In this document: piece by piece, positions 7,940 to 60,255 of the stretch
How positions within the stretch are numbered: the first letter of the stretch is position 1
How the letters are laid out: the number at the start of each line of letters is the position of its first letter
From: Psammoneis japonica
Lineage: Eukaryota
DNA: 64,000 bases
Reading direction: 5' to 3'
Assembly: GCA_008632985.1 (NCBI GenBank)
Contig: QPGO01000023.1
Location: forward strand, 124,001-188,000
Notes under the pieces: model-generated
What the model was told of the DNA's origin: nothing
The model's database searches: none
Seen by the model: the letters and a program-made list of their open reading frames with translations, nothing else
Translations under genes and position numbers: made by a program

Positions 7940-10900
7940 TTTGCAGAGGTGTTTTCTGGCTCATTTCACATCTTTTATCTTTTTGACAAAGCTCAAAGAG
8001 GAGGTTGACCTGGCCTTCTTGCACAGCACTGGCTCTCCTAGGTTGCTCAATGTTGCACAGTGCAAAAAAGACACGCTGCCAACTTGGCTGATCTTTTGCA
8101 GCACATGCAGAAGATGCTTGCAAGAAGGGGTGTCATCTTGAGCTTCTCTGCTGGGGTCCAGACAGCCAGCACTGACCAAAGCTGCACTTGTTTGTTTGCA
8201 GCATCTTGTGCCCCTTTGTGACAAGTGCTGCATCTGAGGCCCAGAGACTCCAATGTGATGACACATCAGGACTGGCCAAATGTGGATGTTTTTCTCTTCT
8301 CCGTGCGCTGTTTTTCTTGGCACATCTTTGGGCACAGTGTGTGGCTCCAGCCATGGTTTGGCATTCGAAAAACTGTTCCCTGGGGATCTCTTGGACAGCA
8401 AAAATGCACTCACAGCTCTTTGTGGGGTGAGAACCCACTCTCCATCACGGCAGTGTGAGTGTGCTGGCAAGATGGCACTTGTGAGAATGTTGCTTGTGTC
8501 ATCTGTTGTGAGCTTCTTGGCTTGATTCAGTTTGGTCAGGTTTTGTGTTGCTTGGCTCATGTGTCAATGAGAAGCTGGAAGTTTTGGTCCTTTGTCCATG
8601 CAAAGAACACCTGGAAAATCATTTTGACTGACAAGACTGCTTGGCATGCAGTGGAAACACAGCACTCTTGTCCTGCCAGGCCATGAAAAAATGGGGCCAT
8701 CAGATCAATTGTTTGGCTCAGAAGATTGGCTCCTGCTCATTTTTTTGTGCAGTCTCTTGTTGTCACTGCACAACAATGATTTCTCTGACTGCATTTCTAT
8801 GAAGGGGTTGATGAAAAAAAACAGCTCTGTGAATTTACACAGGCAAATCACTGAGGTGAGCCAAGGGTGGTTCACACATGAGCTTGCTTGTTGGAGATCG
8901 GCAGAGGTGCTTTTTGATGTGTTCTGTGTGTGTGCCACCATGCACTCTGTTGCAGCCAAAAAAATGCTCAGTTTAAAAGCACTTTTATGTTCATTGTTCA
9001 AAGCAAGTGATTCCACAGTCAACCATGTTAATCTGTTGGCACACACACTCATCCGTTGAGCCCAAGCTTCCTTCTCCCAAACCACACCCAGCTCCAAACA
9101 CCCATGTCATTCACCCCTTCACTGCTCCCTCCCCTGAAAAAAGATGCAGGGGGAGGGAGAGCTGTGGCTCTGTGGATCAGCCTGATGATCCAAACTAAAG
9201 CCAAAAGAGGCAACAACAGTGTCGGTCAGGCAGATTGAAAAACTGACCTTCCTCAGCTGTGCCCCCAAGTGCCTGCCAAAAAAAAGTTCCTCGCAGCACT
9301 GTGCCCCCTCCTTGCAGAAGAATGGACAAGAGTGTGTGGCTTAAAAGAGCAAGGGCCTGTGCACCTGTTGCAGCCAAACTTCCTTGAAGTGCTTGATGAG
9401 AAAATGACCACATCCAAAGACTGCCAAAAAAGAAATGACTGATGACAATGCCCACACACGTGCCAGCTTTCCAGATGCAAGACAGACAAAAAACTGTGGA
9501 TTTTGCTGGAGGCATCATTGTTCCTCAAAGTCATGACACAATGGTCAAATCAGGGGCCAAGGGTGAGCTCACACAAGTGCAGCTCACTTGAGGGGGGGCT
9601 CTGAGATGTGCACACACACATGTGTGCCAGCCTGGCTTGTTGTTGGCTGTGAGGCATGGCAGGGTGTGGTTGGTGGTCCACACACAGAGTGTTGTCATGT
9701 TGCCAAAGCCTTGTTCAGTCAACAGCATGCTCTCCTGGTCATTCAAAATGTCCATGACATGTTTTTGGCACAGCTGCTCAGCACTCATGAGCCACTGACC
9801 ACTCCGCATCTTGAGGCTCCAAAGCTGCTGCACTCTGCCTTGGTTCTGAGAAAGCAGCATGGTTTTTGGCCACCCATTGACTCTCAAAAATGCCCCACGA
9901 CTTTGGCTTGCAGCACCCCATTGCTTGCAACACAAGGAGATCTGCTCATCCAGAAACACCACCTGTTCACAGAGGTTCTCTGGCTTGTTTTGTACATTTT
10001 TTTGACAAAGCTCAAAATGAAAGTTGATCTGGCATGCTTTCACAGCACTGGCTCTCCTGGGTCACTCAGTGTGCAACACACCAAAGCAAGACACATTCCT
10101 GACTCAACTGATTTTTTGCAGTTCATGCAGAAGAGACCTGCAAGGGGGCAGTTTGGGGCTTCTGGGGTTCACACAGTTGATGATGACATCCCAAGTTGCA
10201 CTTGGACATTTGCAGCATCTTGTCCCTTTGACATGAGTGCTGCATTTGAGGCCCTGGGGTTTCAATGTGATCACACAGCAGGATTGGCCAAATGTGCAGA
10301 TTTTTTGCTTCTCTGCTGCTCTTTTTCTTGGCACATCTTTTGTGCACAATGTGCACCACGGTTTCAGCCATGGTTTGGCACCATTTGAAGCTGCACCATG
10401 CTGCAGGGTCCAGGGGTCTCTTGGGCATCAAATGCAATTGTGGCTCTGGATGGGTTGAGAACCCACCACCCTCCAGCCCCCTTCCCAGCAGCACAAGTGC
10501 TGGCAAGATGACGTGCATGAGAATGTTGTGTCATCTGTTTTGTCAGCTTCTTTGTTCAATTTGACCTGGTCCAGTTTTGTGTCACTTGGCTCTCATTTGT
10601 CAATGAGAAGCCAGAAGTTGGAGCCCATTGTCCATCCAAAGAAAACCTGGAGCAGATTTGTTTTGACTGACAAGACTGGCCAGACATTGAGTCTCTCCCC
10701 TGCTTGGTGGTGCAGCGGCATTGCCACACTCTTGTCCCACCTGTGACCACATGCCACTCACTCATGATCAATGCTCTTGTCAAACTTTAAGCTCCAGTCA
10801 TCTGCATCGTCATTCACCCCCCCTTCATTGCTGGCACCTCCCAAAAGAGTCAGGAGGCAGTGAAAAAAAGAGACCTGCAACTTTGTGGATCACCCTGTTG

Positions 10901-11180
10901 GTCAAAACACAAGCTGAAAGAAGAAACAGCAGCATTGGTCAGGCAGATTGAAAAGCTGCCCTTCCTCACCTGAGCCTTCAAACACCTGCCAGTTTGGCAA
11001 ACCCCAAGTGGCAAAGCTCAGCAGCTCAGCTCTTTGCAACACCCTCCTCGCACAAACAACAACAAGGGCATGTGGCACACAAAAGAGCAGGGGTTGCACC
11101 TGCAACCAAACTTCTCATTGCAGTGCTTGATGAGAAAATGACCACAACTGGAGATTGCTGCCAAAAAGAAATGAGTCAGA
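7940..11180 (+). repeat. Diverged direct duplication: copy A ~7940-8690 plus ~9100-9450; copy B ~9965-10750 plus ~10800-11180
   Basis: Shared anchors: ttttgacaaagctcaaa (7981/10000), cacagcactggctctcct, gtgctggcaagatg, ttttgactgacaagactg, ggtcaggcagattgaaaa, gtgcttgatgagaaaatgaccaca. Confidence 0.85.
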
Positions 11181-11419
11181 AAGAGATTGCCTTGGGAAAA
11201 AGATGACTCAAAGATGAAGCTGGCTCAGAAGAAAAAAAGCAACATTTGGAAAATTGATTTAGCAGGGTGACTTGAAAGATGAAGACAACCTGGAAAAAAC
11301 AAAGTTTTGGATGAGAAGGCAAGTTCTTGGAAAAGTGTGCACAACAAAAGATGACAATGTTTTCACCAACATGATTTTCTTTTGAAGAAAGGACAGGACA
11401 ACCAAACAACAAGAAACTG

Positions 11420-11965
11420 TTTCATGCAAGCCAAAACCTTTGCTTTTTTGTGGCTGTGAGTGGGTGAGGAGCCCAGCAACAAGTTTCTGTGCATGCAGTG
11501 TTGGACAACAACATTCTCTCACCCTGTTTGCAGTGGTGTTGCTGGGGTGGGCCCAGGAATGGACCAACTGTGGTCTGTGTTGGAAAACAAGGAAGAGTGG
11601 CACACAGCAGGTTGCTCCATGGGTGTTGGATTTGGTGGATTTTGTTGGCATGGCAGAACTGCCACCTCCCCACATTATGGAGTTCTTCTCAACTGCCATT
11701 TTGTGGTGCAGCACCAGCACAAAGTTGCACCTGCTGTGTGCCTTTTTGATCACAAAGCTTTGCTTGGAGGCATGATGCTCTTCTCTTTCTTGTTGGGTCA
11801 TGTCTGTCCAAGGTGTTGTGTGGGTTTCTGGAGGAAAAAAATCCCCACAGTTGAAAAACATGTCAGGATGTTGAGTGCCATGGAGTGGTTGTTGGTGAAG
11901 AACAGCACACCAACCGTCATTGCTGAAACCACAAAAAGAAGCTTGGATTTAACCTCACTCTGACC
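11420..11965 (-). pseudogene. Decayed gene remnant with N-terminal hydrophobic anchor, product unknown
   Basis: SEVKSKLLFVVSAMTVGVLFFTNN, then frameshifted FFPPETHTTPWTDMTQQEREEHH; no Tyr. Confidence 0.3.
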
Positions 11966-12591
11966 GCTGAATGAGAGAAAAGTGTGTGGCAACAACTGGT
12001 TGACTCTTCTTAAAAAGAAAGAAGAGGTGCAAGATGTTGTCAACACTGTCTTTGCAGCCCGTGCGATGTTCGGCGCTCGTTTTTCATTGGGAGTCAAACA
12101 TCAGAATCACAGCCCATCGCGCGTGCGGGCTCTGCACCACATGTGTGGATATGTCGTTCATTCAGACGGTCCTGACTGAGAGTGGATCAAGCTTCACTGT
12201 AAGACGAGCGGCAATGTAGAATATCTCAAACTGCAACCACTATATCCTCGTCCGGTAACACCACATGGAATAAAACGACTGTGGTTTTCATGCTAGGTTA
12301 GTAGAGGGGCTTGCACCTGACCCTGACAACGGCGAGTCTTGCATTTTCGTTTGATTGTGGGCGTTGGGTAAAGGTAGTTCTATAACTCGAATGATCATTC
12401 AATGGCAAGCTGCGGAATGCTTTGTGGTCGCCGCAAGGAGAGCTCGACCGAACAGGAGCCCCTGACGACTTGCACTCTAGTATGAAGAGCAGCGAGATTA
12501 TGGTCACCGCGTAGGATCGTCTTTCCCTTCGTTCGCATCTGCTATGCTACGCCTATATGTTCCTATGTAGAAGCTGGCCACTGCGACTGGC

Positions 12592-17620: not shown

Positions 17621-17702
17621 GAGTTGACCTGTTTTTGTGGGTGTTGGTGTGGTTTTTGCACCAGGGAAAGGGGCAAGACAATTCCGAAAAACTGGGGCAA
17701 AA

Positions 17703-18395
17703 TCTGAGGTCACATTTTGTTGTTGTTAGTGTGTGTCACTCAATGGCAAGCCCCCACAATGTGTCACAAAAATGGGCATCAGCAGAGCCAAAGATGTGGA
17801 GCTCACAACCCAAGCTGAGCTGCAGCTTGGCATGGAGAACAGCACAAAACTGACAGCTTGTTGAGCTGCCTGTTCCTCCATTGGATTGCATGGCAAGCCT
17901 TCAACAAGAGATGGAAGAGTTGCCATCACATTCCACAATGACACGTGGTTTGGATCAAGCAGTGGTGGAAAACAGGCAAGATGCTTTGTGCGTGCTTTCA
18001 GGGACAATCAATTGGAAAAAAAGGGAGCAAGCATCAATGAGACATTTGGGATGGATTTGCAAACCTTGATGGAAAACAATGTTTTTCGATTTCCCATCAC
18101 ATTTGCCTTTGTCTTTTGTGCTTTGGCCAGTGTCGAGGGAATTGGCAAGGGCTTGGGCAGTGAGTGTGACCTTGAAAAGCTTGCTCAACCCTTTGTTGAA
18201 AAGTTCACAGAAGCACAAAAGAGGTGCTCAAGTGAAGCCGCCAAGAATTTTGATGTGTTCTTGTGAGCGACGGGTCACAATCCAAAGGATGTCGAGACGG
18301 CAGTCATGCCGCTACGAATCCATAGATGACGGCAGCCTCAAGGTTCGAGTTCGATCCTTGGAAAACGAAAAAGCCCCGGAGCGAATGGCTCTTTT
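17703..18395 (+). pseudogene. ABC1/UbiB atypical kinase fragment, copy 2 (tandem duplicate)
   Basis: ENNVFRFPITFAFVFCALASVEGIGKGLGSECDLEKLAQPFVEKFTE...GSLKVRVRSLENEKAPERMAL; clear nucleotide alignment with copy 1. Confidence 0.8.
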
Positions 18396-19779
18396 TTTGC
18401 GCAGGGAGGATCGGAAAAGATTTTGGTTGCATCGCTCATGCTCAACTTTGCGGGAATTGAGAGTCGACCCATTTTTTCGGGTGTGGGTGTGGTTGAAGCT
18501 GCAATCGGTGTTCTTCAGGCTGTCACGGCAAACGCAAAGGTCAAGAAGTTCGATAAAACATATGCCAAGTTTGTCCAAACCAAGTTTGAAGGCGAAGCCT
18601 AGAGTTGAAGGTCGAAGTTGTTTTTATATTTGTTGGGTTTGTTGGTTCATTCATCCCTCTATATGTAGAGAACATAGTGCTTTAGTTTTGTCGAATATAA
18701 ACAGTTTGCTTTTTCTCGAAGTTTGGAGAAGAGGCAAGATGAATCAGAAACCCCATCTCTAGCTTATTTCTTAGAGAGTAGATACTCGTAGAGACTGCTA
18801 TTAGGTACTCGCTTGAGAAGGTAGATTGTACCCCGGAACTTGACGATCAAACACGTCGCACCACGAAATGCTCTTTGCACCGACCATTTCGCTGGAATTG
18901 ATCTTTCTTCGGTGTGGGAACAATCCACCGAAGACACAGCACCTTACGATTGCAAAAGGGGTGCGACGCCACAGCAAGATCAACCATCGCGTCTGCAGCT
19001 TTGTCGGGGTGGAGAGCGACAATGGAGCTGGGTGTTTCACCGCAATGAGCAAAACAGCGCCTTGATCTATTTGATGAAAAGTTGTGCCATCTCCATCAGG
19101 CGTGTCCCCAATCCACACCCGCAGTGTTCCATGCGGGGCGACTGCATTGTCTGAGTTGTTGGAATTCGAGGCAGCCCAAGACCACGTTCGCAAGCAAATG
19201 TGCAACACCCCGCTGCAAGAACAAATCCAAGTACGTCATCAATGTGTCAGGGAAGCTATCACCACCAAGATATTATAATCGTGGAGACCACAGCCCAAAG
19301 ATAACCGTCACGATGGCATAATGAAGTCGCTCATACAACATAATCGTGGAGACAACAGCCCATCAGAATACTGGAAAGAACACCCAATCAATCGCCCATG
19401 ATCATCATCGGCGGGCTCATGTAGTTCTTTCACCGGGAAGCGGCAAGACGTTGGTTAGCTTTATAATCTTGCGAGGTTTGCGATAGAAGGAGTGGGGCTA
19501 AGTAGATCAAGAATCCTGTCGGCCGTTTACTTCCGGAGCAAGAGACCCTTTTGACGATACAAGCCAGCACAATGGAGTAGTTGGCGCGTTATTAAGAGGA
19601 ACGGGGAGGAGAAGGACGCATTCAAGCATGGGAATTCCTCATTACGGATGGCCGTGCTTGTATCGGCTCGGTTCATAGCAGCTCGTGCATCTTCTTTCCG
19701 CTGATGGACGAGTTATTCGATGGTCGGCACCAATCTTGAATCGCGGGTAGAAGTGAATTGGGAATGTTCGAGTGCCGTA

Positions 19780-19900: not shown

Positions 19901-20906
19901 AGCATCAAGTCAGCGGGGAGGTCGGAGAAGTACAGATCTTGAAGCTGTCGCTGGGTTCGCTCAAATTTGCAATTGATGCCATCCGCTCCGATTGATTGTT
20001 CTTTTGTTTCGGTCACAAGTTCTTCGTCCCCACCTTATTGTTCCCTGATGGTTGGCTGGAGGTATTGTGTGATTGCGGATTGGTTGGAGCGGTCAAATCC
20101 TTCCATTTGACACCGGGTGAGAATCGATCATGAACTTATTGTTTCATACTTCGTGGCGCTCGCCGTGACTCATCTATTATGCAACAAAGTTCATACTCAG
20201 CCATGTCACAGACCTGTATCAACAAACAATGTGACTGGAGAAGAACTTCTTGGTCGAACTGAGGGTAATCAATTCTCTTCCAGCCCACCGCAGCCTTAGC
20301 AAAAAATATTGAACCCAAGGAGTGTTCATGGGTCTTCACTTGGTGTGCGAGTGCGATGAAGTACTTGGTAATTACTTCAATCGTTATTTCTGTTAGCGTA
20401 CAAGCAGAAAATGAGTGTAGTATAGTTGTTACGTGATAAATTGTACGGTGTGTGATTTCTGATCAAAGAATTCTCACCTCTAAAGTTCGTTCGAAAGGCT
20501 TAGAACTTGGTGCAGAATCTGGAGAAGCGAGAGAAATCAACGAAGGACCGAGTTCTAGAATCAAATAGTGCATCTACCGTCGGAGTTGAGGCGTGGCGAC
20601 ACAACAAACTCACTTTTCGTCAGGCACAGGATCGTGAGCATGACTTAGTAATGGCGTTGCGGCGAAGTTGTATCAGTTTTGAGAGTTGATGTTCTTGCGA
20701 GAAGCTGCCGGTGTTGTTGGTGTTGGCTCCTGAATCTGATGATGACGCGAAAAGGCACCGCCATTTCCACCCATATCTCGAAACGTAAAGATTCCTCCTC
20801 GTCGTGAGATGGTGTGTATGAACTATGAACAGTGCTGCGAACGAAATGGGAGAAGATGCGCTGCGACAATCTCAAAATCTGCCATGCGTCATTGCGGTGT
20901 GTTTAT

Positions 20907-21255
20907 CCCTGCTTATGCACACGAACCACCTGGTGGTCCGTGTGCATTTTGGGTGCACACGAACCACCTGGTGGTTCGTGTGCACCCTACGCAAAATGCT
21001 GCGTAGATTTGTACAGAATAAATCTGAGTACAGTAAATCCGACGTAGGATCTACGTGTTTGTACCACTCAACACTTGTCCACCGAGCCGGCAGTCTGTGC
21101 CGGCCGTCGTGATAAATATTTTATGTCAAAGAAAGAGTTCGTCAGGGCCGGCGAACAACACCCCACTACGATGCGACTGGTATAAAATGTACGTAAATGC
21201 ACAGGACCAGCATGTGGTTCGTGTGCAAATTAGAGCTCGTGAAAAATAAGCAGGG
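20907..21255. mobile_element. Non-autonomous piggyBac-like element (MITE, 349 bp)
   Basis: TTAT|CCCTGCTTAT ... ATAAGCAGGG|TTAT: 4-bp TSD, CCC/GGG termini, 10-bp TIR. Subterminal palindromes at 20916-20946, 20951-20987 (perfect 18-bp arms) and 21198-21227, asymmetrically spaced. Confidence 0.8.
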
Positions 21256-21344
21256 TTATGCTCGGGCGGGCGGAAGCAGGAAATCTTCTTGGAGCGTGGA
21301 GCTCGTTCAATGACGTCATGGGGTTCGCCCAAGCTAGCTACAGT

Positions 21345-23200
21345 GCACAAAATGTGACAGTGAAAACACCGTTGGTTTCCCGCCACATTTTCAAAAATTT
21401 TGAAACGGCAGACCGGGACACATGAAATCCGAATCACTTTGCTCATTGTTGACGAAGCACACAAATCGCCATTCGACCGTTTGAAACACATCGTTGTCTT
21501 TATTGCCATGGTTGATTCCACAACTCTGCCACAGGTGAGTCGATCGTCTCGTTCTCGTTGAGAACCAGATCTGCTGGAGTCAAGTCATTGAATGTCGTCT
21601 GCACACGATTGCCATGTAGACCTGAAGGCTTGGGTCCTTGACGGTTTTCCTCTGTGTGTTTGATTGCGTGCATCTTTGGAAGTCTGTTCGAGGCGAAATG
21701 ACGATTGCCTGTCAAAGCAGTCCGTGGTTCCGACGGAGATGCACCAAGATTGCCAGCAAACTCGCTTCTTGCGTGTGCGCTGAATGCTTGTGAACATCCA
21801 ATGTGGCAGCAACCCGGTGCCAACCAACGCACTTTTTAGTGCAACGGTTGTTCAAGCAGGAACCACATGAGGGCCAGCCTCTGCTTTCTTTTTGAACGCA
21901 CGCTGAATGCCTGCAGACGTCATGGACCAAGATGGTGTGCTTGACAACCCCGAAGGGCAGCCTTTTTCGTGAAGGTTGCAAGGTGGTTCAGACCGCTTGA
22001 GTTGCTCATTGAGCATCTCACATCTGATCCCCCACAGGTTTGATGCTCCTGTGGGTCACCGGCCCGTTGCATCAGCCACATTCTCCACGCCCCACAGCAC
22101 CTGAAGATCTGTTTTGTTGCATTTGCAATTGTGACCGTCTTGCTGAGTCATGCTTCATGACTCACACTCTTTTTTCAGATTTGATTTCCATTTGGACAGA
22201 CGACATGAATGGAGACATGCAAGAAGGAGGAGCTGCACATTGACAGGTCGTCAACAGCTGGTTCATGTTGGCAATGGTGTTGCTCTTGTTGTCGCTTTAG
22301 TCCCCGAAAGAGCAAGGCACGATGCTCCGTGTCATGGATGCCATTCAAGCCATCTGAATCTAAGTGCTGCGCTCATGTTCTCTCGGACGTGATCTTGGTC
22401 AGTCGCGCAAGCTAGTTCACAAGGCATCCAACCACAATTGGGATGCAAGGCTTTGACGTTTGACAAGGATCGATGCACCATCGTCCTCGTTGCGACCGCA
22501 CGCCGGCGGAAGTCTTCAAAAAGCTTGTTGTTGCGGTCTTCCCAAGTCCCCGCCCCAAGAACACAATCACAGTCTTCCAAGTGGTTCATCATGCAGCAAG
22601 AACTCTTGTCACTGCTCAAGCTCTGTCGAGTCAAAAGAGCCAAAAGGACGCAGCACTGTGGGCATTTCAACGGTCGCCCTTGTTCCGTTGGAATGGCACC
22701 CGTGACCTCCGACAGGCATCTGCATCACAAGACATTCAGGATCATTCAGCAAATGCAAAGCTGTGTGAGCACTCCAAGATTCCGCAGTCCACTTCACTGA
22801 GAGAGTGTTGAGATCAAGAGCCCAATCTGCATTCAAGATCAATCAAGCCCGACAAGGCCAACTGTCTCCAGAAAGAAGAAAGCTGCTGCAGCTTTGATGA
22901 ACCATTGCAATGCTGACCAAGATGTGGCAACAGCTGTGCATTGCAAATTCCAGCCCCATCCAGCACCGCACTGCTCGAAAAGCGATGCAATCTGAAATGC
23001 CATCTCAAGGATCCACTGCTCAGTTGGTCGCAGCAACGACGGCATTCCAAGCTTCGACTGCCTGTGTTGCTCGCAAAGCGTTGGTGCAAGAATGACATTT
23101 GCTCTTGAAGGTCCCCGTTGCTCCAACGTCAGATCACTTGTGCCAGCGGGACATTGATTGAGCAATCTCACTCAAAGCTTGATTGACGAATGCGATCGTT
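21345..23200. other. TA-depleted hypermutated domain 3 (CG partly retained)
   Basis: Very few TA, many CG still present; ORF peptides nearly Tyr-free. Confidence 0.8.
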
Positions 23201-23560
23201 GGAAGCTTGTACCTCTCCAAAAGCTCCGAGAAGCACCCTTCACTCAAATCACGCAAATTTCTTGAGAGCATAAACTGAAGCATCTGCAGCATAGCTTCAT
23301 CGATTCAACAAGACAGACGGCAAGTGAAGAGGCCATTTTGAAGGTTGGATGCTTGCAGTGCGTCTCAAGTACTCTCCTCTCCTGTAAGGCATCCAATTGC
23401 TTCGTGTGGACCCAAGATGCGGCCCCGACTGACGTTCTGGCTTCAAGCGACCGGAAATGGAAGAAAAACGACGGCCAAGCATTCTTGCAGTGTCGGACTG
23501 CGACTCGCCCTCTCTGCAGAAGGACGACTACCATTCATACGTGTGTAGCAAAGAAACATT
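21508..23560 (+). pseudogene. Decayed intron-containing gene of unknown product
   Basis: ATG at 21508, 9-codon exon, GTGAGT..TAG intron 21535-21619, then a protein-like frame interrupted by TGA codons (plausibly former CGA). Confidence 0.35.
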
Positions 23561-25895: not shown

Positions 25896-26118
25896 GGTGC
25901 ATACCGCATACCACTTCTTGCAAAATGGCGAAGATATTGAGCGTCAGTCGAACGAGTCACGTTCGAAACGTGGGAGACAAGACAGAAAACGACACTTTCT
26001 TATGCCCCTCACTTTCATAAAATCTATTCGGCTTCGAATAAAATGGTATTTGCATCTATGACTTCGCGTCTCAGCTCACACACGCTCACAATTTGACGGT
26101 GAAGACAACAAGCGCACA

Positions 26119-27705
26119 ATGAAAAGAAAGAATATTGTGCCGATCCGGACGGCACTAGTCCTTGTCTTTTTCACAATCCATGGAGGCATACAGTTGCGAT
26201 TGCTCCTAGTATCAACAAACTCAAAAGAAAGCACAAACTGGCAAAAAGAAACATTCCACCAACCAATTGTCGAAACGCCACCACAAACCGATGATATAAA
26301 ACCAACCAGACATTTCAATGTATCAACTTCGAATGCTTTTGCCTCATCATCGACGGCAGAGAAGGAAAAAGATTGGGAATTTCTACCCGCAGATAGCAAA
26401 AAAATCCGTAAATGGGGATGCGGCAGAACAGAGACACCGTTCATCTTTGTGCACATTGGAAAGGCTGGCGGGGGGAGCGTACGAGCGAGATTAGCAGCCA
26501 GCAGTCACAATTATACACGAACAAAACCATTGCAACGGGACCTGTCATTTTATCCAATTGGAGGTAGCAACGAAACTGTGGCTCGTTCCTGCAATAGCTG
26601 TTTCTTACACCGACGCCCAACAAAGGAATTTGCGTACGAGGGAACACGACTTTGCCAAGCTAAAACCCCGTTGGGTAGAGCCATTGGATGCCCTGAAGCT
26701 ACTGAGCAATATGCGCAAGAGCTTGGTGGAGTGGCGGATGTTTGTGCACTAGATAGCGATGAGTGTCGACTCGTTTACTTTGGTCATAATATTTTCGGTG
26801 CCGAGATGCACTGGCTTCCGGGGCCTTACCTATCAAAATGGTGGTCCTCGCGGTGGGGCAACAATCCGATGACTCCACTATTTGATTTACTGCATCCAAA
26901 GAATCATTGGTGTTTTTATATAAGCAAGGATCGACCCGACACTAGATATGACTACAAGGAGAAGTATCAACAGTGCTCTATCCCATTGCAAAAATCGGCG
27001 GACAAACAAGCAATAAAATCCCTTTCTCGTTTGATGGCGAAAAATGGCCAATCCGAAATTACATCTTGGGCTCCAGTATACTCATCCATGCCAGTTCTCA
27101 GAGCAACCTTGGTTAGAGACCCACTCGACTGGATACTCTCCAAATTCTTGTGGCATCGCAAACAAAGAAACGTTGAAATGTACGACAAGTGTGACGATAT
27201 AGATCTTGCGGTGCAACAAGGCGTTGTAATACCGGAAAACCAAAGCGGCATGGACAGTAGCGCGCCGGGTTGGCTCATTCGCATGTCACTCGGATACATT
27301 ATGCAATTGTGTGGGGAGGACTGTATTTCGCGATATGCTGCAGGAACAGCCACATTGGAGGATCTCGAAAGGCAGGCGGAAGGCAACCTAAGACAAGGAT
27401 TTGCCGTTGTGGGTGTGCTTGAGGATGGCGTTGACGTATTTTTCGAAATGATTTCAAAGCGTGTTGAATACATTGATACATCGCTCAACCAACAGATAGT
27501 GGGTATGCGGCATTCAACTCAGGGAAGTCCAGAGATGAGTGTCTGTCGCAAGCGGTTTCAGGATCCGGAGTTTCAAAAGGAGCTTTTTGCTAGGGCACCC
27601 GAATTTGAGGCTCTGACTCGACTGTACAAAGTTGCAAAGGAAGTCAATGAATTTCAAAAGCATGAGCTAGAGAAGTGTCCAGGAAATGCTCTCTCCGAAA
27701 GATAA
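26119..27705 (+). CDS. Type II membrane sulfotransferase-like protein
   Basis: N-terminal TM; 5'-PAPS-like FVHIGKAGGGS; 3'-PAPS-like TLVRDPLDWILSKF; FAVVGVLE. Confidence 0.75.
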   Translation: MKRKNIVPIRTALVLVFFTIHGGIQLRLLLVSTNSKESTNWQKETFHQPIVETPPQTDDIKPTRHFNVSTSNAFASSSTAEKEKDWEFLPADSKKIRKWGCGRTETPFIFVHIGKAGGGSVRARLAASSHNYTRTKPLQRDLSFYPIGGSNETVARSCNSCFLHRRPTKEFAYEGTRLCQAKTPLGRAIGCPEATEQYAQELGGVADVCALDSDECRLVYFGHNIFGAEMHWLPGPYLSKWWSSRWGNNPMTPLFDLLHPKNHWCFYISKDRPDTRYDYKEKYQQCSIPLQKSADKQAIKSLSRLMAKNGQSEITSWAPVYSSMPVLRATLVRDPLDWILSKFLWHRKQRNVEMYDKCDDIDLAVQQGVVIPENQSGMDSSAPGWLIRMSLGYIMQLCGEDCISRYAAGTATLEDLERQAEGNLRQGFAVVGVLEDGVDVFFEMISKRVEYIDTSLNQQIVGMRHSTQGSPEMSVCRKRFQDPEFQKELFARAPEFEALTRLYKVAKEVNEFQKHELEKCPGNALSER

Positions 27706-28199
27706 TGGAAATGATACGGATTCCCTGATTCACACAGTCTACCTGATGCACCGCCACAGTAGACAATTTGCAAGAAAAGGAATTCACGATAACAAATGAG
27801 AGTGCAGCACGGCTCAATCTCTTGCTTTGAATGGGTTTCTGGGCGAGTACAGAGCAAGTACCTTCAACCTGGTGCGCAGAACCTACAATCCGAGTCTCGC
27901 TGTAAGTCGTTGGATAATCATCGTGTTGACTCTATACAACTTACACTGCAAACGACGGCTACAGAAGAAATCGTGGGGTAGAAGAAACAATGAGAAACTT
28001 CGTCACATTGGGTGTTGCTCGCCATTTGGTACCTCCTAGAGTTGTAGATCGTGTGTACCGTTTAGCATTGGACCATGTCCTCTAGCTGAAACAAGAAGTA
28101 CACTCCTACCAGAAATAGCTAGCTTGTCAAAGATGTATAGATCTTTAGTGTATAGGTTCGCGCTCGCCTAGTTGGTCATGAATCACTCCTTTCGACTAT

Positions 28200-29701
28200 C
28201 TATTCCCCAAATGATTTCCCAGAACACTCCTCCAGTTCCTTTCGTTGAAACTCATTGACTTCTTTTGCGACTAGATACAGTCGATTGAGAACTCTTAATT
28301 CACGTGACTCCTTCAGCAATTGCGTTTGAAGAACTGGGTCCTGGAAGCGACCCTGACAATCGAGCACTTCCTCTCTTGTTCCAGTCGAATGCCTCTTTCC
28401 TTGGACATGAGGATTGAGCGACGTGTCAATGTAGCGTATTCGTGTCGACAACATGTCATAAAACACATGATCGCCATCTTCCATCACACCCACTACTGCA
28501 AATCCCTGACGCAAATTGCTCTCGGCCTGCAACTCCAAGTCCTCCAACGTGGCAGTGCCCGTATCATATCTGACAATGCAGTCTTCCCCACAAAGAAACA
28601 TAATGTACCCGAGTGACATGCGGTTGATCCATCCCGGTCCAACGCTACCCATTGCAGATTTGTTTGTGGGGACATGTATCTCCCTTCGAACACCAAACGC
28701 TATATTGTCACACTTTTGCTGTTGTTCATTTTGTCTTTGCGATGCCAGAAGAACTTGGACACTAACCAAGAAAACGGATCTCGAACAAGAGTGACTCTGA
28801 GAACGGGAAGAGATGCGTAAATTGGAGCCCATGAAGTGATAATAGATTGATCATTGCTGGGTAGCAAGTGAGAAAGCGATTGAGTTGCTCTGGCGTCCGC
28901 ATGGCCTTGCAAAGGTATGGAGCAATTACTGTACAGGTCGATGTAATCTTGCTTGTTGTATGGTCGACTTGTATTGAAGCGTGGACACCAGGAAGCATGA
29001 TTAGGAGACAAGCGCTCCCATAAGGAAGAAAATGAATTCTTCCCGAATCGATACGACCACCACTTTGAGAGATAAGGTCCTGGAAGCCAATGCATTTCAG
29101 ATCCAAAAATCGTATGCCCCATGAATACTAACCGACATTCGTCCGCATCCAAAGAGCATACACCCGGGTCAGTGGTTTTTATCCTATTGTATCGCTTGGT
29201 ATGCTCTGGACACGCAATCGCTCTTCCTAGAGGGGTCGACGCTTGGCATACGTGGCATCCTTCAAAATGTCTCTCCCAAACTGGACGACGGTGTGAAAAG
29301 CAGCTGTTGCAAGCCCTCGCGATTGTGCTATTGTCAATCGGATAGTACGACATGTCTTGTTCGAGCACCTCTTGACTCGTATAATTGAGACTACTCGCAG
29401 CTATTCTTGCTCGTACGCTTCCTCCGCCGGCCTTTCCAATATGAACAAACACAAAGGGGGTCTCTGTACGATCGCATCCCCATTTACGAATGTTTTTGCT
29501 TTCGGCAGACTGAAACCTCCAATGTTCGTCCTCGTATGGCTTAGGCAGTGGTGTCATCGCATGGCTTGACATGTAGCTTTCTTGTCGTTCATTCATGATG
29601 GAGCTAGAGATTGTCGCTACCGAGACCATCAGAAACTGTGTGCATACAAGCACTAATACGCTGACGAGAATCCATGCCGGAATTCTTTGCGACAGTTCCA
29701 T
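28200..29701 (-). CDS. Sulfotransferase-like paralog in convergent orientation; 1-bp frameshift near 28715
   Basis: Collinear with 26119-27705 (IRKWGC.RTETPF.FVHIGKAGGGSVRAR; RMSLGYIM.LCGEDCI). The two ORFs join if one base is added to the T-run at 28714-28717. Confidence 0.75.
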
Positions 29702-29998
29702 TTTCTCTGCGCGACTTACAGCGCATGTAGCTCTAACTTCCGACTACTGTACTTTACTCTTCCAGTCGATGAGAGACGAGGATAGGGACGTCGTGATTGC
29801 GGTGAGCAAAGGGTGTGAGGTGTGAGTGTGAGCTTTCGGAGGCTCATCACTGTTTCTCTCTAGTTTTTCTCGCACATTTTTTGGCGCGAAGAGTGTACGT
29901 CTGTCGTGCGTCTCATGTCATTTTCGCGCGTTTGCATGCGCGCCGCATTTTTTGTTTCGCCCCCAGCATACCGTAGACAGCATCTCATCACTCCCACC

Positions 29999-53046: not shown

Positions 53047-53239
53047 GATTTATATCTCTAATGTGTGGCAGAAGTGCAGCAGCTACACCGCACGCAAGCG
53101 CTCTGTGGCAGACGCGACACGCGCGATTGTTCGCAGTGGCTGCACACACACCGTGTACTCTCTCTACTGCCGGCAGCTAGAGCTGGACACTCTCTACACT
53201 TTACTAGAGTAGAGTCTACAATGGAACACACTCGTGCTG

Positions 53240-54240
53240 AATCTGCGGAACAGCACACGAAACAGCATGTTTGTTTGTTGTTTGTGATGCAATCATGTGG
53301 AACTTGCACCTCTCCATTTGTCCATGCCTCAAAGCAAAACTTGAAAGATCCGAGAGCACATGCGATGATGATGCGCTTGCTCTCAATGGTGCGGCATTGA
53401 GCGACAAATCTGTTGTTCCACAAGAGGCTGGCAACATTGACCAAGTTGAGCGCAATGTGCAGCACAGTCAACACAGCACAGAAATGAAAGGGGCTCACTC
53501 TGACTCTTTAGAGCTTTTGGAGCAGCACAAGCAGGTTGTCTTTTTCCATGTGTTCCTTGTCAAGACAGGGTGGGAAAAGCCATCAGAAATCCTTGCTTTG
53601 GTTCTTGAGGACTTTGAAGCCTTTTTGTGGAATGTCCCAGCCATGGGATTCATCTGTGGCACTGCCAAAGATGTGAGAGAGTGCATGCAGGCCAAGCCAA
53701 CAAGCACTTCCAGAGGAGCACAAAGTGAGGCATCATGAAAACACTGCCAGAGTGCTGGTCGTCAAAAAAAAATCACCAGCTTGTGCTGCAGCTCACTCCC
53801 AATGCAAGTTTGGCACATGAAATGGAAGTGGTGCATGTTGTGCATCTGCAGCTGCTGGCATTTTCTTTGTGGTGGTGACTGGGGTGGCTGGCAGCCTGGA
53901 TGACACAATGCATGTGTTGCCATCTGTGCACATCAAGACAATGACGGTGGTGAGTGGACATGGCCAATTGAGCCAGCAGCGCTTGGCAGCATCCTTCAGC
54001 AAAGATGGCAGGGTGTTGGCTCTTGGAGCCAAATGCAGTGGCAGCAGTGTTGGGGGGGCATCTCCAGCCAGCAGCTGGCCAAAGAATCTTGTGTGAAACT
54101 GGTGTGGTGCTGAAAGAGTCTGTCAATCAGCGCATTTGGGGGATTTGGCCAGGATTTGGTGAATGCTGGACAGACTCAATGCAGGAGAATTTCCCTGCCA
54201 ATTTAGAGGAAGCAACACCTGCTCAAATCTGCAAGTGAAA
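53240..54240 (-). pseudogene. Decayed gene, membrane-protein-like C-terminus, unknown product
   Basis: Protein-like frames QILAKSPK...RFFGQLLAGDAPP...RCWLNWPCP and AVLTVLHIALNLVNVASLLW...IIIACALGSFKFCF. Confidence 0.3.
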
Positions 54241-54943
54241 CAACGCTTGTTTTTTATCTATGACGGGAGATGGAGTTGCAGTCAAAAATCTGTTCTGTCA
54301 TTGTCACCTGGACAGCAATTCTGCACCCAGATGCGCTTGATTGCACAAGTTAAGAGCAACTCTGGGAAGCAGCCCCCCTTTTTTTTTTGCCAAATGCCCT
54401 TTTTTTTTTGCAAGTTGTTGGCACAGTTCACAGTGGGACAAACAGAAGCAAATGGCTCAGTTTGGTGGCAGCACGCAGTGATGTGCCATGCAACAAAAGC
54501 CAACTTGTGCAGTCATGTTTTGTGCAACAGACAATGTGCCACAAAACACAGTTGAATCAGTGATGATGCCATGCAATGTGTGCCATGCAGCCAATGTGCC
54601 AATGCAACAAACATGCCAAGTTGTGTGGCTGCATCAGGCAGCACGCTGCAAAACACAACTGAGTCTGGTGATGCCATGTCACAAGTGCCAAATGGCATGG
54701 TTGCAACACACATGAAACTGAAGCTCACTGGGAAAATGACCCTTGTTGCACCTGTGCTGGCAGCAGATGCATGGATTGCTGCTTTTCAAGTGCTCATCAA
54801 TGCAGGTCAACCCTTGGCCCTGATCCTTTCAACACACCAGCAGTGCACCCACACTCCACACACCACCACCAAACTGTCTTGTCTGACTCACAGGAAGAGT
54901 GTCAAAATCAACACCTCAACCTTTTTTTTAATTTTCTCCTTTG

Positions 54944-55339
54944 GACGCGTTCCAGCCCTAGGTGGGAGCTCGTAGTACTGACGTGTGACAACAATAATTT
55001 TTATCATCCGTCGTATGTTTCGTACGTAGATTTCTACGTGTGATATTTAAAAAAAATTGTCCAGACTCGCTGTTTTGCGAAGCCCCAGACGTTTTATATG
55101 ACAAATTTATAGAAACAATAATGCGCCAGTTACATTCTTCAATGTCTGAAGAATGTAACTGGCTAAGTAAAAAATGATGTACTTCAATCATGTGCGAGTT
55201 TGTGCGTTCGCAAAATTGCCTCATTTTCTGTTGGCGATCATTGACATTTTAATTACCGTATAATTTTACTACGGAGTTCGCACGTAGAAGTCTACGGGCC
55301 CAATGTCACACGGATTCCCACCTACGTCTGGAACGCGTC
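54944..55339. mobile_element. Non-autonomous TIR element (MITE, ~396 bp)
   Basis: Imperfect ~24-bp TIR gacgcgttccagccctaggtggga / tcccacctacgtctggaacgcgtc, flanked by TTTG on both sides; internal inverted pair cgtagatttctacgtgtga / tcgcacgtagaagtctacg. Confidence 0.8.
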
Positions 55340-56439
55340 TTTGGCAAAAAAGACAGCTGTTCAGAGAGAGCATTGTGTGGTGCTGTCTGTCATCACCAAA
55401 GCAGGATGACGATGCTGTGGTCTTTCACTGCTTGAATTGATCATGCAACAAAACACAGCTTGGAATTGTGCAAGTGCTCAAACAGCACTGAGTTGAAGAG
55501 GTTGTTCTCATTTCCTGATGCACAATGCCCCTGCCTATGTGTTGGTGTTGTTCCAGTCCTTCTCAACTCATTTTGCACTCCATCTGTGTGCTTCATCACC
55601 CAAGATGACCATCAGTGTGCATGTCTTTGACAAGAAGGATCTTTTCCAGGAGAATGAAAATTGTGCTCAACCTTTCTTTCAACACTTGCTGGTTGTCAGA
55701 TTCCTGCTCCAGAGTTTTCTGCCCTCTGGATGATTTTTGCAACTCAAGTGTCAAGAAAAGAGCAGAGACAAACCTGGCTTCCAAGTTTGATTTCTCTGAT
55801 TTTGAACCAGCACAGAGGGTGGCATCATCAAAGGCAATTGAAACTTTGTCCAGGCAATGTGTCGCATGTTCAATGGCCCATGCATGGCAGTCATCTCAAA
55901 ACAAGCAACAGACAAATGGCAAACAGTTGTTGGCCTGAGGATGGGCACACGCGGGGGCAAGATCTAGATGCTTGCAGGCCATGCAATTCCCACACTTGAC
56001 AGCATCAATTTTGCCTGCCTTGGAGCACCCCCAAATGCTTGTTTGCTTGTTGAACCCTTGCCAGGGCTGCTGTGCTGCTGCAAGAGCTTCTGCATGACCC
56101 CCCTTGAAACTTCAGGTGTCACATGTCCACCTGTGCCCTGTTGCTGGGTTGAAATTGCTGCCAATTTTTGCCAAAATTGTGTGACTTGTGGCAGACAAGT
56201 GCCAACAATTGGTGTTTGACTGGCTGCAGGCATGTCTGTTGTCTGTGCATTCCATCATGTCATGCAAGTGAACAATGTTTGGGCTGTCCTGCTGGAGTTC
56301 TGCTTTGGTGAGCTCCTGCATTTGATGCTGTTGTTGGAAGTTTTTTTTTCAAAGAACAAAGGGCCACAAACATGACCAAAATGTCAATGGTCTTTGTGAG
56401 GTTTGCATTGATGTGCACAATTTCCACCTTTTTGTGTTG

Positions 56440-57465
56440 TTCTCACATCACATGTCTTTGACTCTTGTTTTGACAGGACAGATTTGAGCTTGCTGGTTTT
56501 TTTCTGAGGACACCAAGGCACTGCCAGCTCACATCAGTGCATGTCATGCACAAGGCTGGATTGCTTGTCTTGGTCTCAGTGGCTTCTGATGTTGTGCTAA
56601 AAATGAGAAGCAAAAATGCCCCACAACAACCCTGTGGTTTCACAGCACAGACCAGGCACCACCAGTCAAGATGGGCTGCCATCTGTCAAACCACAGACAC
56701 CCATGCCATTGATGAAAAAATCTGAAGATGCAAAAGAACAATGGCCCCTGCTGATCTTCTTGACTGCAAGCATCATGCCAACTGCAGAATGTGTGGGTGT
56801 GTCATGCAGAGTTTTGAGTGTCACTTTTCCATTTGTTGTGCTGGCCAGAAAGATCTGCAACACATGGATGTGAGAAGCTGTGAGACAAGGTTTGCCATGA
56901 TGTTGTGTTGACCACCATGCACAATTTCTCTAAGTTGGGAGAGAGGTGCACAGCTTGCAGACAAGTGTGAGCATGTGTGCTTTGGGAGGCAGCGGAGGCA
57001 ACCAGATCAAGAGCCAATCTCTTGACAACATCTTCCATCTCTTTGGTCCCAAGAAATCTGGCAGAACTTGAACCCAGTGGGAGAGTCGTCAAACATCAAT
57101 TCAAGCAAAATGTTGAGTCCTTGAAAACAGACAGGTGTTCTGGCGAGATTGCACCATTTGATGTGGTTGTGGAAGAGGAGTGATTGCTCATCAGTTAAAC
57201 GCCAATCGCAGGTCCTGTCCATGTGGTTGTCCCATTCCCTGTTTGTGGCCACCGGCACGAAGCTTTGAATGCAACATTTTGATGGCTGCAAGACCTCCAT
57301 GAGATTGTCGATCAGGTGAATGTTGCTATGATGTGAAGAAAAGTCCCCATCCCAATGACATTCTTTTAGCTTGAAACCTCGTCTTGTGTCATCCTCTTGT
57401 CGTCTGAGAGCTGCAAGCAAAATTTCATCTAAATTGCACCCATTGACACTTAAAAATCCCGCCAA
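56440..57465 (-). pseudogene. Decayed protein gene, possibly diatom LRR-like family
   Basis: MAGFLSVNG.NLDEILLAALRRQ..., LQIFLAST....TLKTL, C-terminal ..GVLRKKP; several frameshifts. Confidence 0.3.
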
Positions 57466-57689
57466 CGAAGCTTCCTAAAGTCGTGTTTTGAAAAGCAAGG
57501 TTCGCTGCCGACAGTTCGTGATGCTCTTTTCTTGCATTCCATGGCGCTTCTGCTTGGCACACAGGTCATCATTGGAAGAACATGATTCGAAAGGAATCTG
57601 AGCTGGATTGCTGGTTCTTCTTCCTTTTCGTCGACAAAGTCCTGAAGCTCAAGTTCGTTCACAACATCCACCCCACAAGTGTTCCCTGC

Positions 57690-58760
57690 AAACTGCTCTC
57701 CATGTGCCCCTGCCTCTTTGCTGTCATCCTTCTTGTCCGACTTGTTGTTGTGCCTGCATGAGCGTGGATGTCGAGATGTTCCTTCTCGTGAGTGACTCGA
57801 ATCTGGAGTGAAATCATCACCGTCGCCTTGGCCATCTTTGGACGGGTTTCTCTTGTCATCAAAAGGTTGTTTCCGCAAAACATGCACCATGCAGAACAAC
57901 CAAGAAAGTCCATCCGAAACAAAGTGACATCAACAGAGTCGGAAATGTCAAACATGTGCTCCAAATGGATCTTTTCTTTGCTGCCGGTGCGGATGACACA
58001 TTGGGACAATCTTCCACGTTGTGAGCCAAACCAGTGGAAATGCCATCTCTTGTTGAGATTGGTCATCACAGTCAGTGCACTTTTGTCAGGATTCAGGGAT
58101 GAAGCAGCAAGATGCTGGAGGATGACCTGGTGTTCATGGGCTCCAGCATTGGTGTCTTTCTGATGCTCCACACCTGCCCACATGTTCTGGCAAATTGCGG
58201 CATTGTTGACTTCTTTGCCCTCTGCAAGAACTGTGTCAACATTGCCCGATGCCTTGTGCTTCCCACCGCCCAGTTTTGGCACACACAGCAGGTCTTTACA
58301 TTCATTGCATTCGGCAAAAGCGCATTCCTGTGGTCATTGCATTTTGTCTTCAAGACAATTCATGTGCCCGTCGCGATTCTCCTGGCTGTCTTCTTTGCTT
58401 TTGAACCAAGTAAAAAAGCCCACATCAGGCAGGTTGGCAGGCCACTTGCTCCATTCGGCACCGGTCAGTTTGGGGCCCAAGTCATCACTCACTTCGTGAT
58501 GGCATCAGACTTTGCCTCTGAAAATGCCAAAGTCTCTGCCTCACGCTGCTGCTTTCAGACGCATTCCACAACCTCCAGTGCACCAGCATTGAGCTGTTGC
58601 TGCTGAAGTTGTTGTGCACCAATGCAACAGCGTGTCTCCCCGATGGTCAAAATTCCACCATCACAGAAGATGAGAGTGCCGAATCTCTTGACAAAAGGCT
58701 CTTTCTTGTTGGCTTTGATGGTGCTGCATGGAATGAACAGGGTGGATGCGAGCACATGTT
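57690..58760 (-). pseudogene. Crinkler (CRN)-like protein pseudogene
   Basis: GNVDTVLAE...WAGVEHQK...QVILQHLAAS.LNP....LTVMTNLNKRWHFHWF resembles the restriction-endonuclease-like CRN C-terminal domain found in stramenopiles (recalled, not searched). Confidence 0.55.
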
Positions 58761-58979
58761 GGAGTGAATTGCTGTTGTTTCTTCATCATCCCACTTCACC
58801 AATGCAAGGCCATTGGCAGCCAGCACCTCCACTGCAGGCAATTCCGCCTCCTCCTCCAACTGAGCTGCTGAAGTGGCGTCCATTTTCTTGTTTGTTGTCG
58901 TTCATGGCAGTTGTTTGTGTTTTTGCTCGCATCTCGCATGCTCTGCATCCATGTCATCTTCTTCTGTGTCACAATGAAG

Positions 58980-60010
58980 AAATGCATCAACACAATCCTG
59001 AATTCCCCATCACATCAAAATCATCAGCATTGTTGAAAGATGCCGGTGTTCAATCAACACACCATGTCTGGGGTGTGACCTCATTTCTCCAAGAGCGCCG
59101 TGACCGCACCTGCGTCCAATTTGTTGCTTCCGACTGTTGCGCACAACCCCAACATGTTTTGAACTTGGCGGCACAAGAGTGCATTGCCCACAATGCAAAC
59201 ATTGACCAGACATGCATTGGACAGCTTGTGAGCAAACATTCCTGCATCACATGGCTGACTTGACATTTGCACATCTTGGATGGCAACAATCGGCGACAGT
59301 CGTTGGCATTTGGAACTTCCAAAAGTGGTGAAATCATTCATCCTGATCAAATGGGATGATGCTGTTTCATTGATAAAATGTTCAATGGATCATTTGCATT
59401 GATTCTCCATGATCTGTCCCATCAAATGGCACAGCGTCATCTCTCTCTCCAGTTGTCAAATTGAGGATTGGCAAACACAGGTGCATTGGGCAGCACTGAA
59501 GCGTGCACTCCAATCAATCGTTTCTGGCCAATTGAGTCTTGCCCATAAAACTTGTTCTTCATGAAATGTGGGGCCTTGGCAACGGATGGAATGCGAACAG
59601 TGTCATTTTGTTGTCCCAAATGCCACGGATCATTCCCTCGAGAATCTCTTCTTCCAACATGTTGTGACAAATGACGGTTCAAGCCATGTGGCGGAGATTG
59701 CATGATTCCTGCTCTCATGTTGTGGCTTTCAAGGATGAATGTCGACATGACATGTGTTGCTCAAGGCATGAGCTCCCCAATCCGTTCTCGACGACACTTG
59801 GATGTTTTCACAATTGTCAGGCCCAACCAGCTGGCAGACCGCTTTTAGAATCTGTCGCTCAAAACAGAAAACAGTCCCTCCAATCGGTGCCATCCTCTAA
59901 AATGCAGTCTTCTTGGTTTTGCTGACATGAGAATCCCAGAAACGGAGCACCATTGTGCTGAACCGGAAAGGCATGTCGACAAAATCCATCCAATCGGGTC
60001 ACTGCCATGC
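58980..60010 (-). pseudogene. Decayed gene of unknown product
   Basis: MAVTRLDGFCRHAFPV... followed by frameshifted protein-like segments with TGA interruptions. Confidence 0.3.
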
Positions 60011-60084
60011 GTGCACACCAGAAAACGCGAAAAAATGAGGCTGCAAACAAATTCGCGTTTTGAGAACAAAAAGCAAAAATCTTG

Positions 60085-60255
60085 GAGGTCTAAATTTCAA
60101 AATGGTTTTCTCAAAAAAGCATTAGACCTCTAATCGTTTTTTATCTGTACCTCAGACCTCGAGGTCTAATGGTTTCTTCGAAAAAGCATTAGACCTCTAA
60201 TGGTTTTTTATCTGTACCTCAGACCTCGAGGTCTAATGGCTTCTTCGAGACCTCG
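60085..60255. repeat. 67-bp tandem array (~2.3 copies) built from AGACCTC/GAGGTCT palindromic motifs
   Basis: Units start at 60101, 60168 and 60235; each full unit contains agacctcgaggtct and attagacctctaat. Confidence 0.9.

Follow-up and report, generated by a model that had tools for sequence, protein, structure and literature searches.

Nearly every TA step has been turned into TG or CA in several silent blocks of a 64,000-nucleotide stretch of the genome of the diatom Psammoneis japonica. This stretch, hereafter the window, spans positions 124,001 to 188,000 of contig QPGO01000023.1 (C19:124001-188000, where C19, C36, and the like are contig labels) in an assembly of 91.4 Mb and 597 contigs (GCA_008632985.1); coordinates without a contig label are those of the window. 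A local, near-saturating TpA>TpG/CpA process hits the DNA of silent repeats and gene duplicates after their insertion: TA is the ancestral state, the process is transition-only, a 5' T is strictly needed, both strands are hit in interleaved order, the load builds up gradually, the parent is spared, and the rate follows a graded flank rule. This rule is directional and read on the strand of the mutated A, and it does not amount to A/T-rich sequence being safe. The best reading of the pattern is a targeted adenine deaminase with a TadA-like preference for TAY over TAR, a putative enzyme to which we assign a probability of about one half.

TA-Poor Blocks in the Window

TA-poor blocks were called by a two-state model of TA density, which gave five in the window: 8040-12149, 14287-18553, 21340-23209, 53218-54928, and 55324-60090 (some window-wide survivor counts given below, 57 inside and 1971 outside, rest on a slightly looser block calling). 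The observed/expected ratio (o/e) of TA is 0.04-0.05 inside these blocks versus about 0.4-0.8 elsewhere, and the ordinary genes that fill most of the window lie near 0.4-0.8 as well. CA and TG are 1.6-2.0-fold enriched in the blocks, the GC content is level at 0.47-0.50, and runs of A and of T are somewhat commoner inside. The edges are sharp, within about 100-300 bases; for the block on which we focus, the final TA of the normal flank on the left stands at 53217 and the next only at 53509, and on the right dense TA is back from 60091. The blocks and the two copies that carry the argument are as follows.

53218..54943, no strand: TA-erased block, left part; 6 TA remain, CG o/e 0.18
54944..55339, no strand: young 396-bp miniature inverted-repeat transposable element (MITE), flanked by a 4-bp target duplication and ending in terminal inverted repeats; of the family's 31 TA sites, 30 are intact
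55340..60090, no strand: TA-erased block, right part, a mosaic of decayed repeats and gene copies; 16 TA remain, TA o/e 0.05, CG o/e 0.38
59072..60047, minus strand: frameshifted copy (85%) of an intact tRNA pseudouridine synthase (TruA-type) gene; parent at C19:598317-599300
8040..12149, no strand: TA-erased block following the same rule; 11 of its 13 surviving TA are TTA/TAA
14287..18553, no strand: TA-erased block, by TA density
21340..23209, no strand: TA-erased block with CG largely retained, member of a dispersed repeat family; TA o/e 0.05, CG o/e 0.73

An assembly artefact is an unlikely source of these blocks. The same TA-poor sequence recurs in contigs of sequencing run X1, which may come from the sample used for the assembly, and shows 3-6 differences there per 0.6-1.2 kb. 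Among the differences listed between X1 and the assembly, the 26 inside blocks comprise 15 CG transitions and no clean TA change, as is expected once TA is exhausted.

A Gene Copy and Its Intact Parent

The parent of the gene copy is an intact frame of 383 codons, which matches PF01416 with an E value of 2e-26 in the parent and 1e-5 in the copy. Of its 40 TA, 19 are CA in the copy, 16 are TG, 1 is CG, 2 carry transversions, and 2 are kept (TTAG and TTAT), so that 35 of the 38 changed sites are single transitions. Its 57 CG fared differently, with 26 now CA or TG and 24 kept. The parent itself has a TA o/e of 0.55, which is gene-like (0.42-0.68 in ten gene frames of the window), and 24 of its 40 TA could mutate silently yet are kept, which together argue that the parent was not hit. 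It should be noted that this sparing is a single case, to which selection on the parent could have contributed. The parent gene is trailed by two further partial 3'-end copies (locus L005, 2613-2969; C19 at about 597.8-598.2 kb).

A MITE Family as Clock and Mutation Record

Two queries yielded 58 distinct copies of the MITE family, 28 at at least 97.5% identity and 30 older ones, from the best 40 of some 1400-1500 candidates scored per query; the second query was a mutated copy itself, which biases its matches toward its own states. The analysis of the older copies excludes one copy at 72% and a subfamily-marking TA site, and the main counts were taken after removing variants common to at least three copies. 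The 4-bp target duplication was present in all 25 of the 28 young copies in which both ends were found.

In 29 older copies, A>G changes are found at 516 of 1740 TA half-sites (29.7%), as compared with 18/2028 (0.9%) at AA, 8/1276 (0.6%) at CA, and 5/1217 (0.4%) at GA, and transversions at the TA half-sites number only 12/1740 (0.7%). With shared variants retained, 30 copies show 571 changes at 62 TA bases versus 106 at 171 other A/T bases, a 15-fold excess. The pattern of mutation is individual to each copy. Strand-coordinated bursts find no support, neighboring changes being concordant in 247 of 485 cases (null expectation 241.6 +/- 7.2), and the loads in the 28 young copies are Poisson-like (mean 0.86, variance 0.77). 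Since 25 of the 62 substitutions in these young copies are of the TA type, the process is recent or ongoing. The loss of TA correlates with that of CG over 57 copies (rho 0.80), and in 21 heavily hit copies it reaches 75% versus 12% for CG.

The insertion in the window (54940-55343) is polymorphic, as an X1 contig shows the empty site. The young copies (L006-L065) sit mostly in DNA that was already TA-erased: 52 of 56 flanks of 500 bases have fewer than 15 TA per kb, versus 152 of 260 bins of a comparison stretch on C36 (130 kb, of which 81,475 bases or 63% are TA-poor) and 32 of 128 bins of the window. Either an insertion preference or selection against genic insertions could account for this siting.

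The Flank Rule

The first-pass annotation had noted that the TA surviving between 53,220 and 60,060 stand mostly in TTTA or TAAA, and the nine sites it cited are all present (the TA of the "cttta" placed at 58295 lies at 58297). The TA-poor parts of 53218-60090 retain 22 TA, of which 16 stand in TTTA/TAAA and 18 in TTA/TAA, the few exceptions being three CTAT and one CTAG. These counts exclude the MITE at 54944-55339, an undepleted element within the annotated range that brings 30 TA, 15 of them TTA/TAA, and lowers the TTA/TAA share to 32/52 when included. The same bias, also claimed for the other blocks, holds there: TTA/TAA make up 40 of 51 survivors over the five blocks (78%) versus 733 of 1973 outside (37%), and the inside/outside comparison of 4-mers proposed at the time gives 33/57 TTTA/TAAA inside versus 278/1971 outside (14%; p = 7e-14). 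Composition does not account for it, as a first-order Markov model predicts a TTA/TAA share of 0.547 inside blocks (p = 4e-4). In the independent C36 stretch, TTTA/TAAA contribute 179 of 342 survivors versus 290 of 2057 TA outside, and RTAY only 9/342 versus 580/2057. A comparison of 6-mers was less uniform: those made of A and T only are enriched on C36 (54/342 vs. 140/2057) and not in the window (3/57 vs. 149/1971).

Retention in the five blocks relative to outside is 0.18 for TAA/TTA, 0.10 for TAG/CTA, 0.03 for TAT/ATA, and 0.02 for TAC/GTA. Rates were estimated from an all-against-all alignment of loci with 1890 distinct copy sites, filtered to MITE-free blocks with a clear TA-rich parent and the states TA, CA, or TG, which left 692 events at 379 parent sites; leftovers of multicopy families with an arbitrary parent were excluded. 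A competing-risk model was fitted in which each copy block has a single exposure; intervals come from a bootstrap over sites. As pairs were selected for a TA-poor copy, the overall loss is inflated, and the choice of which strand's A mutated is unaffected. Relative to TA(C/T) set at 1.0, the rate is 0.15 (0.06-0.25) for TAAA, 0.57 (0.35-0.99) for TAA followed by a base other than A, and 0.48 (0.35-0.67) for TAG. Upstream, TT before TA (TTTA) multiplies the rate by 0.55 (0.27-0.81) and AA (AATA) by 1.96 (1.28-3.26). The strand choice at mutated non-MITE sites, which is independent of survival, favors TAC over TAA (31.9/43), over TAG (31.5/44), and over TAT (34.2/54), as well as TAT over TAA (29.7/47), with TAG and TAA level. 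The MITE alone gives a steeper gradient at the position after TA (C 0.89, T 0.77, G 0.33, A 0.13), and a position-wise model predicts these held-out sites with a rho of 0.80 both for total loss (30 sites) and for direction (28 sites).

A general avoidance of TA within A/T tracts, as the first-pass annotation had proposed, does not hold, and general A/T richness was rejected as a shield. ATAT has no survivors inside blocks versus 143 (window) and 128 (C36) outside, AATA mutates twice as fast, TAG is slow with its 3' G, and the symmetric count of flanking A/T adds a likelihood ratio of 4.1 versus 54.5 for the 3' terms. Rate differences of 2-7-fold, acting until some 95% of sites are gone, explain why TTTA/TAAA predominate so strongly among the survivors. 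The accompanying suggestion of an enzyme with a flank or DNA-shape preference, as against GC-biased drift, stands so far as a sequence-reading mutator is concerned, since A>G is confined to TA and GC is flat; the enzyme in it is a putative one. There is also room for a shape term: TTTA/TAAA is the strongest protective context, and it shields the A of both strands, to 0.15-fold where the A stands first in the A run and to 0.55-fold on the other strand.

A Putative Adenine Deaminase

We favor a reading in which a zinc deaminase with the TadA/ADAT fold would be recruited to silent chromatin that carries CG methylation and would there deaminate the adenine of TA in chromosomal DNA to hypoxanthine, after which replication would fix A:T>G:C. 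An adjoining A run gives extra shielding whichever strand it is on, which hints that base opening may be limited by duplex stiffness; the outcome of the process would be a genome defence opposite in direction to the repeat-induced point mutation (RIP) of fungi. Deamination of adenine is suggested by two points: hypoxanthine is read as G alone, and the genome-wide traces of TadA-derived editors are TA-centered A>G/T>C changes (PMC13225742; published sources are cited here and below for their accessible parts). One TadA-derived variant also has the hierarchy YAY>YAR (PMC12528748). Targeting to CG-methylated chromatin is suggested by the loss of CG, by 27 matches to C5 methyltransferases in a profile search of the genome, and by the methylome of transposable element (TE) islands in other diatoms.

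Profile searches with PF00383, PF14437, and PF02137 returned ADAT2-like, TadA-like, two ADAT1-like, dCMP-, guanine-, and riboflavin-pathway deaminases (named from their motifs). The ADAT2-like gene has an Asn at the position that, aligned by eye, appears to match Asp108 of TadA; Asn is usual for ADAT2 at that position.

Several points weigh against this reading. The deaminases that these three families returned look like common housekeeping enzymes acting on tRNA and nucleotides; in the frames scanned, no member shows expansion or carries a fused chromatin domain. TA is palindromic, and an adenine lesion in TAY and a thymine lesion in RTA cannot be told apart by their sequence outcome. The TadA editors are lab-evolved, need single-stranded DNA, and accept CA (YA), and CA is here at background (0.6%). 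The DNA methylation of the blocks is proposed from CG loss, and a CG within four bases has no effect on TA survival (15.9/99 with, 42.3/280 without). TAC and TAT are left undivided by the position-wise model (2.85 and 3.7, with overlapping intervals), the mutation of TTAA, ATAA, and GTAA sites in the gene copy makes the flank preference less than absolute, and the polarity of parent and child in repeat families assumes that the TA-rich copy is ancestral.

A further step is tentative, and we consider it less probable than the general reading: a dedicated natural DNA adenine deaminase of this diatom lineage, with a strict 5' T, the order TAY>TAR>TAAA, no activity on CA, and duplex or transiently opened DNA as substrate, might be steered to silent chromatin as an inverse RIP and share its origin with a process described in the alga Bigelowiella natans across the stramenopiles, alveolates, and Rhizaria (SAR).

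Some of the C5 methyltransferase genes (L160, L161, L162, and L166 on C301 and C297) lie inside TA-erased DNA themselves, where they are probably carried by a mobile or foreign element, and others lie in a normal gene context. At L163/L164 (C34:41951-45664), a C5 methyltransferase frame follows an upstream frame with a chromodomain, an architecture described for some diatom DNMT4 (PMC9998398).

Alternative Mechanisms

Among the alternatives, a lesion of the thymine keeps the most weight, although we think it improbable. A repeat-marking modification of T at RTA, namely 5-hydroxymethyluracil (5hmU) oxidized on to a base that pairs with G, would lead to T>C and an identical sequence outcome. The further oxidized 5hmU base is one that miscodes. 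Dinoflagellate transposons are marked by 5hmU, which takes the place of T with a preference for TA and TC (PMC11572971), yet T>C in TC, which equals A>G in GA, is at background in the MITE copies (5/1217). A search of the genome for Tet_JBP (PF12851) gave no match, and its positive control was silent too, so that this is no proof of absence.

Slightly less probable again is a two-step change of the adenine, in which a methyltransferase would mark the A of TAY in silent DNA and deamination or miscopying would follow; the flank rule would then be that of the marking enzyme. The strict need for the dinucleotide and the shielding by A runs on both strands suit a base-flipping enzyme on duplex DNA. 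It is also in favor that the TE islands of diatoms are methylation targets, of cytosine (PMC9998398). Against this reading, known eukaryotic N6-methyladenine sits at ApT in active genes.

We regard as equally unlikely an error-prone filling of gaps, by which the repair of damage to methylated C in silent DNA would recruit a Y-family polymerase that places G opposite T at TA, like polymerase eta at WA in somatic hypermutation, or iota. TA and CG loss do co-occur in blocks and correlate over the MITE copies, but this correlation is also expected from age alone. The WA spectrum of such polymerases differs from the pattern here, where AA is barely hit (0.9% vs. 29.7%) and transversions are rare (0.7%). 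Changes moreover do not form strand tracts, a nearby CG is without effect, and TA loss is about six times CG loss.

Very little speaks for RNA editing of the ADAR type fixed by reverse transcription. ADAR prefers a 5' U and the genome has two A_deamin genes, but a DNA-transposon MITE and a gene copy were hit after insertion with strands interleaved, and changes confined to one strand per copy, to retroelements, or preferring UAG were not found; UAG is a hot spot of ADAR2 (PMC10661471), yet TAG is slow here (0.48-fold). An account with no targeted mutator at all, by composition, GC-biased conversion, selection against TA, or assembly artefact, can point to background genes already at a TA o/e of 0.42-0.68 and to the A/T runs in blocks, which raise the chance share of TTA/TAA to 0.55, but it is just as implausible, as the observed share lies above that expectation, GC is flat, other A/T bases are unconverted, patterns differ per copy, X1 contigs repeat the TA-poor sequence, and the parent-copy alignments contradict it.

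Comparison with Known Systems

The closest likeness is to Bigelowiella natans. Of the 231 mutations recorded there in two integrated viral regions, 230 are A>G or T>C changes, all lying at TpA, and they arise at about 1000 times the background rate per generation and in some lines only; the authors propose, and do not show, a DNA deaminase of the ADAT2 type, ADAT2/3 (Mettrop et al., bioRxiv 10.64898/2026.01.13.699255). Both systems have TpA>TpG/CpA transitions on both strands of silent foreign or repeated DNA, TA-poor clusters rich in CA and TG, and no need for pairing between multiple copies. The process in P. japonica thus shares the spectrum (transitions almost only A>G/T>C), the restriction to TpA, and the locality with genes spared, where the silence of the DNA is itself deduced, and it is new in its lineage, its classes of target, its near-saturation, and its measured flank rule. 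The targets there are integrated DNA from NCLDV (nucleocytoplasmic large DNA viruses) and from virophages, and those identified here are a MITE, other repeats, and a host-gene duplicate; the diatom belongs to a different supergroup, and in its blocks about 5% of TA is left, with CG lost as well. In Bigelowiella the process was followed as it happened; here it is read from copies. The accessible main text of the preprint mentions neither a flank rule nor diatoms, and its supplementary mutation table may hold flanks.

RIP, in Neurospora and other ascomycetes, likewise leaves dense dinucleotide-specific transitions with sharp edges in repeats and destroys mobile DNA. It makes TA from CA/TG, however, whereas the process here removes TA. 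RIP is triggered by pairing, needs RID/DNMT4, and mutates both copies of a duplication, in bursts; in the present case the parent is untouched, strands are interleaved, and loads are Poisson-like. C>T changes that create TpA were not found, and neither was mutation of both duplicate copies, the latter from one case.

The TadA editors (ABE8e, ABE8e-YA, and ABE3.1) share the A>G change in DNA, the preference for TA, and in one variant YAY>YAR. They are engineered, guided to displaced single strands, and accept CA; the natural counterpart proposed here is a candidate. Diatoms have CG-methylated TE islands (DNMT5a; PMC9998398), but the decay of 5-methylcytosine yields only CG>TG/CA and cannot remove TA.

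A literature search, with most subscription papers beyond its coverage, found no paper on the erasure of TA in a diatom, and the term "TpA" does not occur in the accessible part of PMC12344493. No look-alike stretch was found among the other genomes compared. Eight metagenome contigs with a silicon transporter (1.8-19.8 kb) contain no TA-erased block and one 500-base bin at 0.10, their gene-free DNA being too scant to judge other diatoms. A profile search of the P. japonica genome for the silicon transporter family gave 24 matches (best E 2e-208), and a single frame of 1511 codons at C38:226311-230342 holds three tandem silicon transporter domains.

Further Features of the Blocks and Their Surroundings

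Most of 53218-60090 is without a family match, DNA searches yielding only the MITE, the gene copy, and two of the features below. The left part (53218..54943) has no Pfam match in frames of at least 75 aa and no homolog among the loci compared, and among 114 such frames from the five blocks, the one Pfam match above the cut-off is the piece of pseudouridine synthase.

55967..56238, no strand: decayed piece, at 67-77% identity, of a repeat about 0.5 kb long that is dispersed through the genome in many copies
57481..57703, minus strand: 72% match to a TA-bearing C36 sequence; 4 of 6 TA now TG/CA, 2 of 6 now AA
60101..60234, no strand: two 67-bp tandem repeats, partly palindromic, just beyond the right edge; TA undepleted

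Short hairpin-like or palindromic repeats with intact TA stand at both block edges (53150-53220 and 60101-60234) and may mark element ends or boundaries. Another short and young element, about 350 bp long, lies at 20906-21256, adjoining the block at 21340-23209; it has a palindromic end, and copies at 93-99% occur elsewhere. Old tandem duplications occur within TA-erased blocks at 7977-11158 (period about 2.0 kb) and 17010-18289 (0.74-0.77 kb). Two inverted paralogous genes at 26062-29743 (frames of 547 and 347 aa, 71-78% alike) are without a Pfam match.

The C36 stretch was rejected as an allele of the block at 53218-60090, as it matches the window at 7.9-29.5 kb only. There, positions 7926-29515 have a rearranged second copy of 21 kb at C36:381106-400089, which is 94% identical in genes and 78-85% in blocks. 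The segment 23826-24934 has 45 TA per kb in the window versus 11 in the C36 copy; cases like this, TA-rich in one copy and erased in the other, show that blocks can spread or differ between copies.

Implications

A TA-specific A:T>G:C process has been reported once before, in a 2026 preprint; in the present case, much of a diatom genome has been rewritten by it. The locus supplies a gene copy in place whose parent is untouched, together with a dated MITE and a rate model that passed validation on sites held out of the fit; the model separates the preference for the 3' base from the shielding by A runs. The flank rule derived from parent-copy pairs sets a quantitative standard for candidate enzymes, each of which must match it in vitro, and its comparison with the 231 Bigelowiella mutations may tell whether one mechanism acts in both algae. 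For this genome itself, repeat ages and repeat annotation are distorted, as are the calls of open reading frames, since the loss of TA removes TAA and TAG stops and tyrosine codons. To our knowledge, the mutational genome defences described so far (RIP, APOBEC, CpG decay) have cytosine as their target, and laboratory evolution was needed to obtain editors of DNA adenine. A dedicated deaminase, if this reading is true, would be the first chromosomal adenosine-to-inosine genome defence and would offer a new scaffold for adenine base editing.

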